A DNA stretch of 57,328 nt. It comes from Nanobdellota archaeon (GTDB taxonomy: Archaea > Nanobdellota > Nanobdellia > Pacearchaeales > GW2011-AR1). The position numbers were made by a program, and so were the translations under genes. The notes below the pieces were generated by a model. That model saw only the letters and a list, made by a program, of their open reading frames with translations. It was not told the origin of the DNA and did not search any database. Positions 2,986 to 34,503 of the stretch are shown in pieces (the first letter of the stretch is position 1; each line of letters starts with the position of its first letter). The stretch lies in NCBI GenBank assembly GCA_038045265.1, contig JBBSYL010000036.1:1-57328 (forward strand). Direction: 5' to 3'.

Positions 2986-3606
2986 CTATTCAATCTCTCT
3001 AACTGCCTTCTCATAAAATTTATTAACTTTATACCAGTTTATAATATTAAAAAAAGCTTTAACATAATCTACTCTCCTATTCTGATAGTTTAAATAATAA
3101 GCATGTTCCCAGACATCTAACCCAAGAATTGGAATATCTCCACTCATATAAGGTGAATCTTGATTTGCCGTCGAATATATCTCTAGTTCTCCATTTGAAG
3201 TCATAACCAACCACGCCCACCCACTACCAAATCTTGTCAAAGCAGCATTAGCGAACTGTGTCATAAATTCATTATAACTTCCAAATTTTTTTATTATGGC
3301 TTTTAATATGCCTCCTTCACACTCCTTCTTTTCAGGCCCCAATATTTCCCAGAACAAAGAATGATTCGCGTGTCCTCCTCCATGATTCCTTACTGTAGCC
3401 CTTATCTCTTCTGGAATAGAATTAATATTAATTAATAATTCTTCAATTTTCTTGCCTTGTAAATCCTTATACTTGCTTAATGCTTCATTTAATTTATCAA
3501 CATATGCCTGATGATGCTTAGTATGGTGTATTTCCATCGTCCTTGAGTCTATTATCGGCTCAAAAGCGTCATAGACATAAGGCAGTGCAGGCAGAGTAAA
3601 CGTCAT
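2986..3606 (-). CDS. sod: Fe/Mn superoxide dismutase
   Basis: [36 protein letters not shown], plus the C-terminal [17 protein letters not shown] metal-ligand motif. The real start is the ATG at 3606; the ORF-track N-terminal extension to 3870 is low-complexity read-through. Confidence 0.9.
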
Positions 3607-25670: not shown

Positions 25671-25797
25671 TGATCCCGCCAAGAGTTGAACTTGGGACCT
25701 CTGCCTGTCTGAAATCATCTGATTTCTGAGCACACTCAAAAACCAGAGGTTTTTGATGTTATCAGAGCAGCGCTCTAACCAACTGAGCTACGGGATC
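25671..25797 (-). tRNA. tRNA-Ile(GAU) with a ~53-nt intron at the canonical 37/38 position
   Basis: Minus-strand fold: acceptor GATCCCG/CGGGATC, D arm GCTC/GAGC, anticodon stem CTGCT/GGCAG, loop CTGATAA, T arm CCAAG-TTCAACT-CTTGG, discriminator A, no encoded CCA. The mature length is 74 nt. Confidence 0.8.
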
Positions 25798-25851: not shown

Positions 25852-25922
25852 GCGCCGATGATCTAACGGTATGATTCGACCTTCCCAAGGTCGTTGCCCG
25901 GGTTCAACTCCCGGTCGGCGCA
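25852..25922 (+). tRNA. tRNA-Gly(CCC)
   Basis: Acceptor GCGCCGA/TCGGCGC, anticodon stem CGACC/GGTCG with loop TTCCCAA, and T arm CCGGG-TTCAACT-CCCGG. Confidence 0.9.
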
Positions 25923-26051
25923 TTTACTTTAGCAATTTGAATAATATAAGAAAGTGAATGGAACGAAGGCGCATTTACTTTAGCAATTTGAATAATATAA
26001 GAAAGTGAATGGAACGAAGGCGCATTTACTTTAGCAATTTGAATAATATAA
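25917..26051. repeat. 51-bp tandem direct repeat, 2.65 copies, first copy starting inside the tRNA-Gly 3' end
   Basis: The unit ggcgcatttactttagcaatttgaataatataagaaagtgaatggaacgaa is identical at 25917-25967 and 25968-26018. A third partial copy spans 26019-26051. Confidence 0.9.
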
Positions 26052-27097: not shown

Positions 27098-27469
27098 ATG
27101 GGAAAAAATTTATTAATTGCATCACACGATAAAGCAGTAGGAAACATGCTTGAAGATGTAGCTCGGAGGAATGGCTATGGAGTGGTTTGTCCGCAAAGCG
27201 AAGGTTTTTTAGTCGATGAATTCCGAACGCTGTTAGATCAAAGACCTATAAAAGTTCTTATGGATGTTAATTATGGAAAATGGGGCTCTAATGATATCAG
27301 TCCAATTATAACTGTTGCAGAATTAATGAAAGAAAGAGAATATGATTTACAAACTTCTCTTCTCGGAATAACTGGAAACCCGCTCCTTGCAGAGGAAACG
27401 CAGAAAAAAAATAGAATAAATGTGGCGACCAAGACAGATATTCGAAGAGTTTTTGGATTTCTATCTTAA
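27098..27469 (+). CDS. hypothetical protein (possibly receiver-like fold)
   Basis: A 123-aa ORF. The N-terminal LLIASHD stretch is weakly CheY-like. No firm motif. Confidence 0.35.
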   Translation: MGKNLLIASHDKAVGNMLEDVARRNGYGVVCPQSEGFLVDEFRTLLDQRPIKVLMDVNYGKWGSNDISPIITVAELMKEREYDLQTSLLGITGNPLLAEETQKKNRINVATKTDIRRVFGFLS

Positions 27470-27515: not shown

Positions 27516-27603
27516 GGCCTCGTAGCTCAGCCTGGCTAGAGCACTGGACTCTTAAAATCTTGTAGAAATCCAGGTGTCGCGGGTTCAAATCCCGTCGGGG
27601 CCA
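27516..27603 (+). tRNA. tRNA-Lys(CUU) with a 13-nt intron; integration target (attL) of the DGR island
   Basis: Acceptor GGCCTCG/CGGGGCC, D arm GCTC/GAGC, anticodon stem CTGGA/TCCAG, loop CTCTTAA, T arm GCGGG-TTCAAAT-CCCGT, discriminator A. Confidence 0.85.
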
Positions 27604-27651: not shown

Positions 27652-28818
27652 ATGAATGAAAAGATAGACATTCACTTTGAAGATGTGGGAAGAAGGAAAG
27701 AATCCATTAAAAAATGGAAAATGCCTTCAGAAGTAAAGAGAGATATGCTTCTTTTCCTTAATGATTTAGAATTAGGAAAGGTAAACAAGGGAAAGAAAAT
27801 AAATCCTAGAACTCAATTAAAATATATCAACACGTTAAAAGCTCCTCTTGAATACATAAACAAACCTCTTACTAAAATAACCCTTAAAGACTTAGAAGAG
27901 TTTGAAAAGGATTTATCTTCTGGTATATTGAAAAGCAAAAAGAAAAAGCCATATTCTCATGCCGTAAAGGCAGACATTAGAATTGCATTAAGAATACTAT
28001 TAAGATGGAAATTGGGGCTAGAAAAGGCAAATAAGCTTACTGATTGGTTTGATTGCAGAGATATTGACACAACACCAGACTATTTGAGTGAGAAAGAGAT
28101 AGAGAAGTTGTATAAGAGTTGTAAAAGCCTTAAAGAGAGATTTCTTATTGCTGTTCTATTTGACGCAGGTGTAAGAATTGAGGAATTTCTCAATATAAGA
28201 TACGAAGATGTTTCCTTACCTGTAAAAGAAGCTAATTTCGTTAAAATTACAATAAAGAATGAATATAGTAAGACATTAGGAAGAAATATATCTCTTTATT
28301 GGAAGCACTCATCAGAGGCAGTAAGAGACTTTATAGAACAAAGAGTTAGAGAAGGGATAAGAACAGACAATGCAGTCTATGAAGACACTTATTCTGCAAT
28401 TCGTTCATTCTTGAGAAGGTTTGGAATTAGAGTATTAAACAAGCCAGTGCATCCTCATTTATTTAGACATAGCTCTGCAACATATTATGCAAATAAACTC
28501 AATAGGCAAGAGCTATGCATGAGATATGGATGGAAGTTTAGCTCTGATATGCCTGACATCTATATTAGTAGAGCAGGAATGGAAAATAAAGAACTTGATG
28601 AGAAATTTACTCAAACTGAATTAGGAGATTTGAAATATAAACTTGAAAAGCAAGAACAACAAAATAATCTTATGAAAGAAAGACAAGAAAGACTTGAGGA
28701 AGAGTTGAATAGAAGAAGAAAATTTGACCCATTCTTAGACAAGCTAATGCAACAACAACCAGTAATACATCAAATAAAGAAGCTATTAGACAATGGAAAG
28801 AAATTAGTGATAGAATAA
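27652..28818 (+). CDS. int: tyrosine recombinase / integrase
   Basis: DAGVRIEEFLNIRYEDV (Arg I box), HPHLFRHSSATYYA (H-x-x-R) and DIYISRAG (candidate catalytic Tyr). It is intact and lies next to the att site. Confidence 0.9.
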   Translation: MNEKIDIHFEDVGRRKESIKKWKMPSEVKRDMLLFLNDLELGKVNKGKKINPRTQLKYINTLKAPLEYINKPLTKITLKDLEEFEKDLSSGILKSKKKKPYSHAVKADIRIALRILLRWKLGLEKANKLTDWFDCRDIDTTPDYLSEKEIEKLYKSCKSLKERFLIAVLFDAGVRIEEFLNIRYEDVSLPVKEANFVKITIKNEYSKTLGRNISLYWKHSSEAVRDFIEQRVREGIRTDNAVYEDTYSAIRSFLRRFGIRVLNKPVHPHLFRHSSATYYANKLNRQELCMRYGWKFSSDMPDIYISRAGMENKELDEKFTQTELGDLKYKLEKQEQQNNLMKERQERLEEELNRRRKFDPFLDKLMQQQPVIHQIKKLLDNGKKLVIE

Positions 28819-28844
28819 ACATAAAGTGGTGATTGGAGAACAAA

Positions 28845-29567
28845 ATGCCAATCAAACAAAAACAAAAGAAATCGAGCAACCGAAGCTCAATCCAGAGGAT
28901 GAGCTTTCGGGAAAGAATTGATTATGAAGAAGATAAAAAGAATAGATACTATAAAAGAACAGGAAAACAACAAAGAGTAAGAATAAATCTTGATTATGCC
29001 ATGGGATTTTTCAAAGCTAATGAATTAAATGTGCATGAAAAGGCATATTTGCTCAACAAAAAATATCAAATTATATATCGAACTGATTTAACAGGCAAGA
29101 AAAATTACTTCTTAGTGAAGCCGAGAGGAAATGAATCGGCAGAACATTTCCTTCTCGTAAAATTAATAGAAGAATATCTAAAACCTCATTTTAAAGTCTG
29201 GCTCTATCACTCTGTGAAGCCAGACGCGGAGATAAAATTCAAGAATAGAATGATTGCTATGGAAATTGAAACTGGAAAGCTTTTGAGGAACAATAAAAAA
29301 GAATTTCTTGAAAAAGTGGAGAGACTTAATGATAATTATGGGAAAGATTGGTTTTTCATTGTCACAAATAGAAATCTATTAAAGAAATATAGAAAATATG
29401 GTAAAACATACACAAGAAAGTCTGTATTGAAGAGATTAAATTATTACATAAATAATAAACCTAAAGAAAGTATAAGCATGAATTATGAAAACAAACCTAT
29501 AAAACGTGAAAATAAGCTTCCAGAAAGGAAAACTGGTGCTTATTGCTTTAATATTTGGGGAAAATAA
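28845..29567 (+). CDS. hypothetical basic protein of the island
   Basis: An ORF from the ATG at 28845, with a Lys/Arg-rich N-terminus. ..SAEHFLLV..KPDAEIKF..IAMEIETGK is loosely reminiscent of a PD-(D/E)xK nuclease core, but this is not secure. Confidence 0.45.
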   Translation: MPIKQKQKKSSNRSSIQRMSFRERIDYEEDKKNRYYKRTGKQQRVRINLDYAMGFFKANELNVHEKAYLLNKKYQIIYRTDLTGKKNYFLVKPRGNESAEHFLLVKLIEEYLKPHFKVWLYHSVKPDAEIKFKNRMIAMEIETGKLLRNNKKEFLEKVERLNDNYGKDWFFIVTNRNLLKKYRKYGKTYTRKSVLKRLNYYINNKPKESISMNYENKPIKRENKLPERKTGAYCFNIWGK

Positions 29568-29720: not shown

Positions 29721-30768
29721 TTACACCTTTTCTAAAAGAGCATCAATTATCTTCATTTTAACTGCTTCCCTTAACTTATACGTCTTAGCCCATTTAGCAT
29801 AAGCCTGCCAACCTTGATAAACCTCCATTATAGATTCAAAACTCTTTTCGCCCTTTTTGTATAATTCTATTTTATTAATCATACTTCTTATATTTCTCTT
29901 TCTCAATAATCTACAATGGTAAAAATTCCTAAATCCAACAAAATCAATGCCTCTTTTTATTGGAATAATTCTTGACTTATTAGGATGTAATTCTATTTTT
30001 AACTTTTCTTTTAGAAAAGTATCTATTTTATCCTTCCATTCTTGAAGCTGTTTAGCAGACTTATGTAAAATTACAAAGTCATCAACATATCTTATGTAAT
30101 ACTTTGCTTTCAGGGTGTGCTTGACAAAATAATCCAGCTCATTCAAATATACATTAGCAAAGAATTGAGAGGTATAGTTGCCTAAAGGCATTCCTTTTGC
30201 TCGTTCGCCCCCCCCCCCCGAACGAGCTTACTGTATTATTCAATATTTGTCTGATAAGCCAAATCACGTCATTATCTTTAATCTTCTTACTTAGAATATT
30301 TATTAAAATTTCATGGTCAACGCTAGGAAAATAGTGTCTTACATCTGCCTTAAGGCAAAAACCACTTTCAGTATAAGGATTTGAAACTTTTCTTATAAAC
30401 CTATCAAATCTCTTAAGTGCAAACAATGTTCCTTTTTTTATTTGATTTGCACATGAATCATATATAAACTGCTTTTCAAAGAACTTCTTTATGACATTAA
30501 TTATAGCATGATGAACTACTCTATCTCTGAAATCAGATTTGCTTATCACTCTTGTTTTTGGGTCTCTCAAAACAAAGGTTTCCAAAGGCAAGGGCTTGTA
30601 TGTTTTATAAGTTAGTTCTCTATGCAGATTTAATAAATTAAGCTCTAAATTTTTCTCAAATTCCATAACGTCTTCATTTGAAGTTTTACCTTCTCTTGCT
30701 TTTCTCCAAGCAAGAGTTAAGTTTCCCATTGAAGATAGCCAATAATAAAGACCATTGTAAGTTTTCAT
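29721..30768 (-). CDS. DGR reverse transcriptase, reading frame interrupted by a G12 tract (one G fewer gives an intact 348-aa protein)
   Basis: The start MKTYNGLYYWLSSMGNLTLAWRKAREGK.., DPKTRVISKSDFRDRVVHHAI, the DGR-type motif 4 GMPLGNYTSQFFANVYL (xGxxxSQ), and YIRYVDDFVIL (YxDD). The two ORF-track pieces (30154-30873 and 29721-30191) join at the homopolymer. The total of 1048 nt equals 3n+1. Confidence 0.9.
30199..30227 (-). repeat. homopolymer G12 (sense strand; C12 on + at 30208-30219) flanked by a perfect 8-9 bp inverted repeat inside the RT gene
   Basis: The sense strand reads GCTCGTTC-G12-CGAACGAGC. This is the frameshift site of the RT. Confidence 0.9.
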
Positions 30769-30797: not shown

Positions 30798-30881
30798 CTA
30801 TTCGACCGTTCTCGTTAGAGTTAGCAAGATTGTCATTATTGGCATTCAAGTTGAGGTTACTATTGAGGTACAACCTCGAAA
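30798..30881 (-). repeat. DGR template repeat (TR), 84 bp
   Basis: It is homologous to 32150-32233 and 31269-31352. It has 28 A on the sense strand, mostly in AAY codons. It lies 29 nt upstream of the RT start and is not coding; the ORF-track TTG-start extension of the RT ORF covers it. Confidence 0.9.
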
Positions 30882-31242
30882 GGTATAGCCTTCTGCTTTA
30901 CGTACTCACATTCACATCTGTAAATTTCATCTCATTATTGCAGATGTAAATGCTCGTCACCACCACTTCATATTTCATTTTTCAATTACTTAATGTCGCA
31001 GTTGAATTTTATAATCTTCTCTTACGAGAAGACCCTAAGCACAAGGCGTGTAGCCCAGCCATGATTTGTGCATGACTAGGACTGTTAAAAGAAAATAATG
31101 CTTTTTATTTAATTAGATTATAGAATATGCAATAATCAAACAATATAGATAAAAAAATAGATTATATTATCAATTTGATTTTAAAGTTCGCATTTTATAA
31201 TTTTTCATTTTTAATTATTATGTACCAAAAAATTTGACGCAA

Positions 31243-31257: not shown

Positions 31258-32001
31258 TTAGAAGAGAACTACCCGACCGTCCTCGACAGAGTAAGCAAGA
31301 CCGACATTATCGGCATACAAGTCGAGGCTACTACTGAGGCACAACCTCGAAAGTCCAAGATTATCTTCATTAGCTTCTCCCTGCGATGCAGTCCATAATG
31401 TTCTTGTTCCTTGTCCGAGCTTAGAAGGCAAACCAGTTTCTAATGAAACATCTTCATTTCTAAATACTCCTGTTGGTTTAGCAAGAATTGGAGAATGTCT
31501 TACTTGAGTATTTGGATTATAAACTAATCCTAAACCATAACTTCCTTTATCAAAATTCTTTAAACCATATTTGACAAGAACTGCTGGAAGCTTTTTAACA
31601 TCTCTTAATTGAGCAGGTAATTGTCCAAACATATCCATAGCCATTTCATGATGTCTTCCTGAAAAGTCTAATACAACTCCTAAATCAACATAATGATTTC
31701 CTCGTATTCCTATTGTATCTCCATCATTAAGAGTTCTTTGAATATCTTCTGGAAGTCCAACTCTTCTTTCTGGAACTAATGATTGAACTACTGGTAAAAC
31801 TAAAGAATTTGAACCTCTGACTGTAGGAACTTTATTAACTTCTGCTAAGTTTAAAACTTTAAGATTGGGATTATCAGCATAATCTCTTTTAACCAAGGCA
31901 TTAAAATCTTCTACAAATCTTGGAGCATTATCTCCTTGAAGAGTGTAAGGTATTACAAATGGCTGTTTTACTGCTGGCTTAAAATCATATTTATCTGTCA
32001 T
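31258..32001 (-). CDS. DGR target protein 2 (VR at extreme C-terminus)
   Basis: A paralog of the upstream gene. The C-terminus ..LSRLCLSSSLDLYADNVGLAYSVEDGRVVLF is encoded by VR2. It starts 2 nt after the stop of target 1. Confidence 0.85.
   Translation of the reverse strand: MTDKYDFKPAVKQPFVIPYTLQGDNAPRFVEDFNALVKRDYADNPNLKVLNLAEVNKVPTVRGSNSLVLPVVQSLVPERRVGLPEDIQRTLNDGDTIGIRGNHYVDLGVVLDFSGRHHEMAMDMFGQLPAQLRDVKKLPAVLVKYGLKNFDKGSYGLGLVYNPNTQVRHSPILAKPTGVFRNEDVSLETGLPSKLGQGTRTLWTASQGEANEDNLGLSRLCLSSSLDLYADNVGLAYSVEDGRVVLF
31269..31352 (-). repeat. DGR variable repeat VR2
   Basis: There are 15 differences from the TR over 84 bp, all at TR adenines on the sense strand. Confidence 0.9.
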
Positions 32002-32003
32002 AA

Positions 32004-32888
32004 TTATTTCCCTCTCCCTGTAGGCATATTAACCATAGATTGTGTAAACCATTTATCGAGTTCGCTTTTTCTTGCTTCTACTTGTTCTCTTAATTGAGCT
32101 TGATATTGTCTAATAAAATCGGCGCCAGTGGCTTCGCCACTAACCAAAACTACCCGACCGTCCTCGTTAGAGTTAGCAAGATTGTCATCATTGGCACTCA
32201 AGTTGAGGTCACTAACGAGGTACAACCCCGAAATTCCATTATCTCTTGCAAAAAATTGTCTTTTTCCATTTTTATCAAATTTAGGTAATCCTAATTCATC
32301 AACATCTGTAAACTGTTTTTCATTATTCTTTCCAGAAAGTCTTTCATCCTGTGCAACTGCAAAATCAGGTCTTGCTACAACCTTTAATCCATATCCTGCT
32401 CTGTCTTCTTCAGAAGGCACGACATCAAATCCTTGCACCATGAATGGATATTTTATACTTCCAGCCTTACTTTCTGCTAATTCAGTAACTTGTTTTAATA
32501 TTCCTCTATTCTGTTCTCTATTGTCTTTGTTACTTTGAACAACAAATGCAGGAGTATCAGAATAATGATTATCTTTAACCATAGAAAGAACTTGAGGGTT
32601 GCTTAAATCAGCCAATGTAACAACACGCATATTGAAAGGTCTTACCATATTATCCAAACGAGATGCTGAAAATGTATTTGAACCAGTCATATATGCAGGA
32701 TTATCTTTTCCAGCTTGAACCAGTGTGAGAACATTAAGGTATTGATTATCTCCAAATCTTTCTTTAATATCTCTTCTAAATGCTTCATACAATGCAGGAG
32801 CAAATTTATCTCCTTCTGCGAATGCTGTTAAAATAGTTGGCACTCTCCAATTAGGTTGCCCAAGATTTAGTTTACTTTCTTTAGCCAT
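32004..32888 (-). CDS. DGR target protein 1 (internal VR followed by ~47-aa tail)
   Basis: ..GISGLYLVSDLNLSANDDNLANSNEDGRVVLVSG.. is encoded by VR1. There is no signal peptide or TM helix. Confidence 0.85.
   Translation of the reverse strand: MAKESKLNLGQPNWRVPTILTAFAEGDKFAPALYEAFRRDIKERFGDNQYLNVLTLVQAGKDNPAYMTGSNTFSASRLDNMVRPFNMRVVTLADLSNPQVLSMVKDNHYSDTPAFVVQSNKDNREQNRGILKQVTELAESKAGSIKYPFMVQGFDVVPSEEDRAGYGLKVVARPDFAVAQDERLSGKNNEKQFTDVDELGLPKFDKNGKRQFFARDNGISGLYLVSDLNLSANDDNLANSNEDGRVVLVSGEATGADFIRQYQAQLREQVEARKSELDKWFTQSMVNMPTGRGK
32127..32141 (-). promoter_or_regulatory. GC-rich hairpin 8 nt downstream of VR1 (sense AGTGGC-GAA-GCCACT, 6-bp stem)
   Basis: A perfect inverted repeat just 3' of the IMH-like end of VR1. 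It lies within the coding sequence of target 1. Confidence 0.6.
32150..32233 (-). repeat. DGR variable repeat VR1
   Basis: There are 9 differences from the TR over 84 bp, all at TR adenines on the sense strand. Confidence 0.9.
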
Positions 32889-33282: not shown

Positions 33283-34503
33283 ATGATTAGCATGGTAGAA
33301 GAAGAAATAATAAAAGAAGTTATAACTTCACAGAGAGAATTATTGAATAAATCAGAAACTGGAACTCCGAGAGAGGCAGAAAAAGAGATTAGTATATTAG
33401 ATTCGTTTGCCCTAATAATAACTGGCGTGAGACGATGTGGCAAGAGTACATTTTTAAATCAGCTAATAAAAAAGCAGAAAAAAGCTTATTATCTTAATTT
33501 TGAAGACCCTCGACTAGAAGGATTTGAATTAGCAGATTTTAATAAAACTGAAATAATTTTTAAAAAGCTTTTTGGAGAAGGAGGAGTTTATTTTTTTGAT
33601 GAAATACAAAATATAGCTAAATGGGAAAAATTCATAAGGTACTTGGTTGATAAAAAGGAGAAAGTAGTTATAAGTGGCTCAAATGCCTCTATTTTGAGCA
33701 GAGAACTAGGGACAAAACTTACGGGAAGACATCTTAGAGCAGAAATGTTTCCTTTTTCCTTCAAGGAGTTTTTAGACTTAGAAAATGCCGAACCATCAAT
33801 AAATAGCTTTGATAAATATTGCCAGAAGGGAGGATTCCCAGAATATCTAAAGAAAGACAATCCAACGATATTAAATGAATTATTATCTGATATTGTAATG
33901 AAGGATATTGCAATAAGATTTGGAATAAAAAATACCAAAATATTAAATAAAATAGCAATCTTCCTCATAGGTAGCTCTGGAAAAGAGTTTTCTTATAATT
34001 CAATAAAGAATATGCTAAACATTAAATCTGTACAAAGTGTAATAAACTATATATCATTTTTTGAAGATGCCTATCTTATCTTTACTATTCCTCTCTTTAA
34101 CTATTCATACAAAAAACAGCAAGTAAATCCTAAAAAAGTTTACTCGATAGATACGGGCTTTTCTGTCTACAATACTCCCTCCTTTTCAGAAGATAAGGGG
34201 AGAATTCTAGAGAACGTTGTATTCCTTGCCTTGAGGAGAAAACATAAAGATATATTTTATTTTAAAGAAAAAAATGAATGTGACTTTTTAATAAAGGAAA
34301 GGGAAAAAATTATTCAAGCTATCCAAGTCTGCTATAATTTTAATAATGACAATAAGGAAAGAGAAATTAATGGGTTGATGGAAGCAATGAAGAAGTTTAA
34401 ATTGAAAGAAGGTTTAATTCTAACGTATAATCAAACTGATGAGTTTAATGTAGAAGGATATAAAATTAAAGCTATTCCTGTCTGGAAATGGCTTCTCTTA
34501 TGA
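33283..34503 (+). CDS. AAA-family ATPase (DUF4143-type archaeal ATPase)
   Basis: Walker A GVRRCGKST and Walker B VYFFDEIQ, with a C-terminal region like the DUF4143 family. The alternative start at 33292 fits the 30-nt TATA spacing better. Confidence 0.75.
   Translation: MISMVEEEIIKEVITSQRELLNKSETGTPREAEKEISILDSFALIITGVRRCGKSTFLNQLIKKQKKAYYLNFEDPRLEGFELADFNKTEIIFKKLFGEGGVYFFDEIQNIAKWEKFIRYLVDKKEKVVISGSNASILSRELGTKLTGRHLRAEMFPFSFKEFLDLENAEPSINSFDKYCQKGGFPEYLKKDNPTILNELLSDIVMKDIAIRFGIKNTKILNKIAIFLIGSSGKEFSYNSIKNMLNIKSVQSVINYISFFEDAYLIFTIPLFNYSYKKQQVNPKKVYSIDTGFSVYNTPSFSEDKGRILENVVFLALRRKHKDIFYFKEKNECDFLIKEREKIIQAIQVCYNFNNDNKEREINGLMEAMKKFKLKEGLILTYNQTDEFNVEGYKIKAIPVWKWLLL

Follow-up and report, generated by a model that had tools for sequence, protein, structure and literature searches.

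Organization of the split reverse transcriptase locus

The 57,328-nt contig JBBSYL010000036.1 of a Nanobdellota archaeon (assembly GCA_038045265.1), referred to here as the window, carries on its minus strand a gene for the reverse transcriptase (RT) of a diversity-generating retroelement (DGR), which is split into two open reading frames (ORFs) at a run of 12 G. The features at the split are:

30208..30219, minus strand: G12 homopolymer (C12 on the plus strand), encoding the Gly run of the loop ...SSF-GGGG-ER... and out of frame at this length
30199..30207, minus strand: 3' flank of the run, CGAACGAGC in the sense direction, which is the right hairpin arm and holds CGAACG at 30202-30207
30219..30227, minus strand: 5' arm of the inverted repeat, GCTCGTTCG in the sense direction, including the first G of the run; lineage-specific
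30154..30768, minus strand: N-terminal RT ORF as read with G12 (ATG at 30768, stop at 30154-30156), 204 aa, with RT motifs 1-3 and an out-of-frame tail
29721..30191, minus strand: C-terminal RT ORF, 156 aa, starting at the Met of GMPLGN, with motifs 4-7 (including YVDD) and the thumb

The two RT ORFs overlap at the run, and the 204-aa product is also called in Logan and NCBI assemblies. On the sense strand, positions 30227-30199 read GCTCGTTC-G12-CGAACGAGC. A first-pass annotation of this DNA had described the 12 G on the sense strand (C12 at 30208-30219) and the splitting of the RT there, and was exact in both. Its arithmetic was also correct: the distance from the ATG to the final stop is 1048 nt (3n+1), and removal of one G restores the frame. 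With G11 or G14 the gene encodes one continuous RT of 348 or 349 aa, respectively, reading ...NNTVSSFGGGGERAKGMPLGNYTSQFFANVYL.... The perfect inverted repeat that it reported, with arms of 8-9 bp, was likewise recovered; if its arms are taken to include the outer G and C of the run, they span 30199-30207 and 30219-30227, have a length of 9 nt and pair without mismatch (100% complementarity). The hairpin predicted with the G run in its loop has a folding energy of -20.6 kcal/mol as RNA (z = -3.3) and of -10.4 kcal/mol as DNA (z = -8.6). The window has a GC content of 32.9% and contains no run of G or C longer than 6 besides C12. GGG accounts for 11.5% of its Gly codons, CGA for 1.9% of its Arg codons and GCG for 10.9% of its Ala codons.

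The merged RT matched Pfam RVT_1 (E = 2e-21), and its best solved relative by RT profile was the Bordetella DGR enzyme bRT (8ub7; E = 3.8e-58, 30% identity). An AlphaFold model of the RT (mean per-residue confidence, pLDDT, of 90.6) had the same protein as its best PDB match by Foldseek (8ub7_A; template modelling scores 0.84/0.89). The remaining parts of the DGR, including the template repeat (TR) and two variable repeats (VRs), lie upstream of the RT gene:

30798..30881, minus strand: TR, 84 nt, ending 30 nt upstream of the RT ATG
31269..31352, minus strand: VR1, at the 3' end of the target gene 31258..32001 (247 aa), with 15 mismatches to the TR
32150..32233, minus strand: VR2, in the target gene 32004..32888 (294 aa), with 9 mismatches to the TR
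30880..31080, minus strand: RT-16 RNA (Rfam RF03019), a structured motif abutting the TR on its 5' side (84.7 bits against a gathering score of 50)

All mismatches between TR and VRs fall at TR adenines (15/15 in VR1 and 9/9 in VR2), and both VRs sit within the 3' part of a target ORF upstream of the RT, as is expected of a DGR. The split gene encodes a genuine DGR RT. The order of the DGR transcript is probably RT-16, TR and RT. VR2 ends about 146 nt short of the stop of its target ORF, and so is not at the extreme 3' end. A Pfam search of both target proteins gave no match.

Tract length within one strain and across the clade

An intact RT in the protein database (P0001) matches the G11 reading at 100% identity; it is encoded on contigs of 57,430 and 57,326 nt. 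The window was then compared with assemblies of the same strain, in which tract lengths are assembly consensus calls and not reads:

L001 (GCA_964361045.1): G11; over 21 kb otherwise only 5 single-nucleotide polymorphisms (SNPs) relative to the window, clustered at 33429-33474
L003 (Logan, ERR3858114): G11; no other difference from the window over 5672 nt
L205 (Logan, ERR3858113): G12; identical 247-aa target protein, compared at the protein level
L002 (Logan, SRR32696702): G12; no difference from the window over 1279 nt
L206 (Logan, SRR32696705): contig end inside the run, at least 12 G; identical 247-aa target protein, compared at the protein level

G11 was also found in L203 and L204, so that G11 is represented by L001, L003, L203 and L204, and G12 by the window, L002 and L205. 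The 5 SNPs between the window and L001 span 46 nt inside a gene for an AAA_14/DUF4143 ATPase (33283..34503). The ERR runs belong to the Hainich/AquaDiva groundwater data sets and were jointly the source data for one genome in another study. Thus, a single clonal background from a single site yields calls of either length. The presence of two lengths in one strain is what a hypermutable tract predicts, and the length polymorphism in an otherwise identical background that is expected of phase variation was thus found at the level of consensus calls.

In the protein, the run corresponds to part of a loop between the QILNN and GMPLGN segments that varies in length from 16 to 43 residues among 120 homologues. 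In these the loop often consists of a Gly run followed by E or R (GGGGER, GGGER, GGGGGGER, GGGRT). Relative to bRT it is an insertion of about 9 residues before the G(M/I)P(L/I)GN motif, and residues 184-186 within it form the only segment of the AlphaFold model with pLDDT <50. Because of this low pLDDT, its absence from bRT and its variability in homologues, the loop should tolerate changes in length. The Gly-rich linker before motif 4 noticed in the first-pass annotation is therefore present, but it is not peculiar to this gene, being a semi-conserved, length-variable loop of the clade. Other repeats occupy the same place in some relatives. In locus L014 (DAIQOR010000001.1, ~3507-3545) the place of the G run in the loop is taken by a (GA)13 repeat, encoding ERERERER, after which comes the same CGAACGAGC as in the window, and RERERE loops occur in the database proteins P0098, P0105, P0106 and P0115. 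In the RT gene of a GTDB Nanoarchaeota metagenome-assembled genome (L027, ~1295-1325) this loop is interrupted by an in-frame TAA close to a stretch of N (scaffold gap), possibly another disrupted allele or an assembly problem.

In Gly-run relatives the codons GGG GGG GGG create runs of G6-G9, in genomes of 28-36% GC. JGI/ENA metagenome contigs were scanned upstream of the MPLGN codons with a frame-blind pattern (G8+ N{4,34} ATGCCNYTNGGNAAY...), and at least 119 RT stretches with G8-G16 at the same spot were obtained, so that the comparison with orthologous RTs proposed in the first-pass annotation bore out the tract. Of the matches listed, 94 non-duplicate loci, each with at least 100 open RT codons abutting the run, formed the usable set. 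This set was selected for the presence of a G8+ run; a separate genome scan retained the best-scoring, hence intact, 80 loci. Run lengths among the matches listed ranged from G8 to G16, with a mode of G10. The bases after the run were strongly conserved in the 94 loci (C in 89/94, G in 83/94, A in 85/94, A in 73/94, C in 59/94 and G in 50/94), with CGA directly after the run in 79/94. The CGAACG element is kept in all three frames relative to the downstream ATG, and is read as GER, GRT or GA(N/T). The TTC-Gn-CGAA motif can also occupy a different upstream frame, as in L018 compared with the window. The tract is thus one instance of a clade-wide Gn-CGAACG element, the length of which does not keep to multiples of three.

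A general richness of these genomes in G runs was ruled out: apart from the tract of a second RT copy, the 744 kb of DNA flanking these RTs contain no further G/C run of at least 8. The use of the rare codons GGG and CGA, together with flanks nearly devoid of G/C runs of at least 8, argues that the tract is under selection. A scan of IMG/VR with the same pattern for viral relatives gave 0 matches. Viral DGR RTs are at most 49% identical and belong to another clade, and in the 24 with the motif located, G runs at the equivalent loop do not exceed 4. In four viral IMG/VR DGR loci of the other RT clade (L217:2739, L233:3371, L259:2871 and L283:2601), a G/C run of 8-11 nt follows the RT match at a distance of a few hundred nt downstream.

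The palindrome behaved differently from the run. The best stem that the two flanks can form averaged 3.52 bp in the 94 loci, against 3.56 bp with permuted left flanks, and thus showed no excess of pairing. This permutation test ruled out the hairpin as a conserved feature, and it was consequently given no place in the mechanism and taken as a local feature. In the window hairpin the right arm is essentially the conserved CGAACGAG motif, while the complementary left arm is lineage-specific; arms of at least 6 bp were found only in a few lineages (the window, and L179 and L184 with 6-7 bp). The emphasis that the first-pass annotation placed on the inverted repeat accordingly found no general support: in orthologues it is the run and its 3' CGAACG that are conserved. 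Two other roles for the palindrome were rejected. Although a 28-nt deletion would restore the frame, an inserted element or intron does not agree with homologues that carry a Gly loop at the same place, and the palindrome, a perfect stem of 9 bp closing a loop of 11 nt, does not have the form of a bulge-helix-bulge motif. As regards a long-range partner for CGAACGAGC, no other copy was found in the window beyond chance, and nothing complementary in the RT-16 RNA alignment.

Frame states, selective constraint and competing explanations

The reading frame across the run was determined for the 94 loci, a locus being ON when both parts of the RT are in frame and OFF when they are not:

In frame (ON): 22/94 loci, 7 of them at G8 and 6 at G9
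Needing one additional G: 32/94 loci, 7 of them at G8 and 7 at G9
Needing one G less: 40/94 loci, 5 of them at G8 and 11 at G9

Thus 72/94 loci (77%) were out of frame, and the split was similar at G8 and G9. Near-identical contigs from separate records shared the tract length in 10/10 clusters, OFF lengths included, and since all 10 clusters agree within themselves the calls are reproducible. The ON or OFF state was equal in identical sequences and random below ~85% nucleotide identity, from which a rapid switching of state can be inferred. A frame offset fixed in the clade was looked for across the loci and not seen.

Despite being out of frame, these genes have not decayed. A complete C-terminal half (at least 140 aa) was present in 57/62 OFF loci, the other 5 having extra truncations, and median hidden Markov model scores were 259 and 221 for OFF loci against 261 for ON loci. 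Two OFF/OFF pairs, L089-L169 and L085-L135, gave a ratio of nonsynonymous to synonymous substitution rates (dN/dS) of 0.09-0.17 in each half of the gene. In the TR/VR pairs of 46 loci, non-A mismatches numbered 0.5-0.9 at OFF loci and 1.5 at ON loci. With halves intact and constrained and TR/VR pairs clean, a plain pseudogene is excluded. Likewise, sequencing error is inadequate for the pattern of the family, because OFF lengths are reproducible and common at G8-G9. In summary, the tract is conserved, both lengths occur in one strain background, most alleles are OFF, and the two halves of the RT are intact and constrained.

Several observations were made on the joins around the tract. A contig start at the run or within 8 nt of it was found in 8/120 contigs; the contigs starting or ending there were L091, L103, L115, L120, L127, L152, L188, L202 and L206. 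Assemblies thus tend to break at the poly-G run. One contig (L128) carries two RT paralogues, one with G4AG8 in frame and one with G11 out of frame. A mosaic structure is suggested by L119, whose N-terminal half resembles one RT copy and whose C-terminal half is identical to the other, and L085 and L101 have N-terminal halves at dS 0.33 and identical C-terminal halves. The sequences of these loci point to recombination, or to assembly joins, near the tract.

Based on these data, the reading that we favor, with a probability of about 0.55, is that the conserved hypermutable G tract acts as a DNA contingency switch gating the RT. On this reading the run is genuine and heritably unstable and is placed between RT motifs 3 and 4, in a surface loop that is dispensable and that bRT does not have, and slipped-strand gain or loss of a single G would convert an intact 348-aa RT (G11, ON) into a split one (G12, OFF, the state of the window) and back. 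Such length changes, inferred to arise by replication slippage and to be reversible, would set DGR activity; since the RT drives mutagenic retrohoming, the tract would become a switch of hypermutation acting on the two VR-bearing target genes, and second-order selection would keep the run. As expected of phase variation, a long repeat lies within the coding sequence, and natural alleles include ON and OFF forms of a gene that is otherwise intact. It is likely that OFF alleles are also expressed to some extent, through slippage of RNA polymerase or the ribosome.

Other observations weigh against a purely mutational switch. ON alleles are below the neutral third (22/94; two-sided binomial p = 0.048). 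The pairs L085/L135 (G11/G8) and L089/L169 (G9/G10) have kept the same OFF frame over dS of 0.4-0.7 with the downstream half under purifying selection, and such a switch does not account for a CGAACG that is strongly conserved at the nucleotide level in all three frames. Within the strain of the window, the VRs are identical between G11 and G12 assemblies, so that no difference in activity is visible, and stutter of the polymerase chain reaction (PCR) near 50:50 could contribute to the disagreement of runs over G11 and G12, these being consensus calls only.

The scarcity of ON alleles and the shared OFF frames are accommodated by recoding no less well than by switching, and we regard recoding as possible, though we lean against it as the principal explanation. 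RNA polymerase stutter or ribosome slippage would then yield full-length RT from any frame, making the frame of the DNA largely irrelevant; tRNA-Gly would slip on GGG, helped by the rare codon CGA or GCG in the two OFF frames, and the tract would be retained to hold RT expression very low and noisy. That 77% of loci are out of frame, in both directions, yet keep both halves intact and constrained even downstream of the shift is in favor of it, as are the minority of ON alleles, the two pairs that share an OFF frame, and the OFF TR/VR pairs without extra non-A decay. The same holds for the CGA found after the run in 79/94 loci although it makes up 1.9% of Arg codons (GCG, with 10.9% of Ala codons, is less extreme). 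Efficient transcriptional slippage is known at A/T runs, and programmed recoding sites normally keep one fixed frame offset. Here the frame junction does have a conserved slippery sequence, but the offset is not fixed (ON 22, +1 32, -1 40, randomised with divergence), no conserved stimulatory RNA structure was found when flank pairing was examined in the 94 loci, and length polymorphism exists at the DNA level. The most far-reaching version, in which the RTs of the whole DPANN DGR clade are normally out of frame and made only via slippage on Gn-CGAACG with CGA/GCG as stimulator, seems to us unlikely. Bypass of frameshifts by slippage at homonucleotide runs is documented in bacteria (PMC3812077, PMC1088944 and PMC5009743). 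The DNA switch and recoding are not mutually exclusive, and of the options named in the first-pass annotation, a slippage-prone switch and a slippage needed for expression are both compatible with the data, which do not single out either.

For the window alone, G12 might be a technical miscall arising from PCR stutter in the library or from the choice of consensus, the organism having G11 and an intact RT in all samples. G11 is called in at least three assemblies of the strain, the replicate runs ERR3858113 and ERR3858114 disagree, and one contig breaks in the run, as would be expected with noisy reads. We consider this improbable, because G12 was obtained independently from different assemblers and data sets (the window, SRR32696702 and ERR3858113), and OFF lengths in the clade recur between independent assemblies and are no rarer at G8-G9 than at G11-G12; Illumina chemistry, moreover, does not systematically mis-size homopolymers. 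The simple consensus error contemplated in the first-pass annotation is therefore not enough by itself to account for lengths that differ reproducibly between data sets, or for 72/94 related genes out of frame. Even less probable is a dead or dying pseudogene, or a natural two-piece RT whose C-terminal half is translated from the GMPLGN Met. Decay could be read into the extra C-half truncations of 5/62 OFF loci, but intact halves, dN/dS of 0.09-0.17 and an ON allele in the same strain contradict a plain pseudogene. A two-piece enzyme would fit a GMPLGN Met that is ~90% conserved in the clade and an upstream ORF that stops at most ~55 nt from this ATG in 70/72 OFF loci. It would leave the conserved rare-codon G run unexplained, however, and ON alleles encode a single chain, like bRT. 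Internal initiation with the G run as a Shine-Dalgarno-like element was rejected: the run lies 15-31 nt upstream of the ATG, a spacing that is too long, no such element is found at a usable distance, and no conserved overlap was seen between this ATG and the stops that end the upstream ORF.

Genomic context and comparison with known systems

The genes neighboring the DGR include one for a TFIIS-type zinc ribbon protein and other archaeal-type genes, and the closest RT proteins are labelled Nanoarchaeota, Woesearchaeota or Pacearchaeota (60-75% identity). By sequence affinity, the host is a DPANN (Woesearchaeota-like) archaeon and the locus belongs to the DPANN-type DGRs. An 88-nt tRNA gene, probably intron-containing (27516-27603, plus strand; labelled 'tRNA-Stop tta' by ARAGORN), is directly followed by a tyrosine-recombinase (Phage_integrase) gene (27652-28818, plus strand) that adjoins the DGR. 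Since this tRNA and the Phage_integrase gene lie next to it, the DGR cassette may be on an integrated element. A gene for tRNA-Gly(CCC), the decoder of GGG, is located at 25852-25922 and runs at its 3' end into a tandem repeat (25917-26051) made of 2.6 perfect copies of a 51-nt unit, and a second tRNA lies nearby at 25671-25797 (minus strand).

To our knowledge, DGRs are the only prokaryotic systems in which proteins undergo targeted hypermutation, and little is known of how they are restrained in the cell. The data suggest that hypermutation is here under a stochastic switch or a throttle of leaky expression, a mutable tract controlling a mutator, which gives a concrete answer, open to test, to the question of what keeps DGR activity in check. 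Uncultured archaea would thereby provide a clear example of contingency-type repeats or of recoding; were obligatory recoding true, archaea would have a recoding signal on a G run, and DGRs a further, new level of control. In practice, gene callers and DGR finders that need an intact RT miss most members of this clade.

Compared with the DGR of Bordetella phage BPP-1 (bRT; PDB 8ub7 series), the archaeal system shares the fold and motifs of the RT, the adenine-only differences between TR and VR, and the VR at the 3' end of a target gene. It differs from it in the ~9-residue Gly-rich insertion encoded by the poly-G run, which bRT is without, and in the RT-16 RNA upstream of the TR. An accessory protein of the Avd or HRDC type was sought only by Pfam on neighboring ORFs and no Avd homologue was identified: ORFs 28833..29567 and 27098..27469 gave no Pfam match, with no dedicated Avd profile or small-ORF search made. 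With DGRs of DPANN archaea and Nanoarchaeota the locus has in common a low GC content and C-terminal VRs. Such DGRs are reportedly the subject of Paul et al. 2015 and 2017. Both papers are cited in PMC5758913. A homopolymer in the RT gene or a frameshifted RT is not mentioned in the DGR surveys and reviews searched, which did not cover Paul et al. 2017, and no earlier account of such a tract was found there.

Programmed transcriptional slippage and ribosomal frameshifting at homopolymers are known from insertion sequence (IS) elements and dnaX (PMC1088944, PMC5009743), where, as here, a conserved slippery run joins two overlapping frames into one enzyme. The archaeal run differs from them in consisting of G and not of A/T, in an offset that is not fixed and in that no conserved stimulator hairpin was found. 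The simple sequence repeat contingency loci of Neisseria, Campylobacter and Haemophilus, in which poly-G/C tracts mediate phase variation (PMC5084427, PMC6321876, PMC2831843), share with it an intragenic poly-G of 8-12 and the occurrence of both ON and OFF lengths in alleles that are otherwise identical or intact. Further likenesses are a tract kept despite its rare codons and assemblies that break at it. In contrast to those loci, ON alleles are here the minority and a conserved CGAACG lies 3' of the run, and in this uncultured archaeon the gated gene is a mutagenic RT and not a surface or restriction-modification gene.

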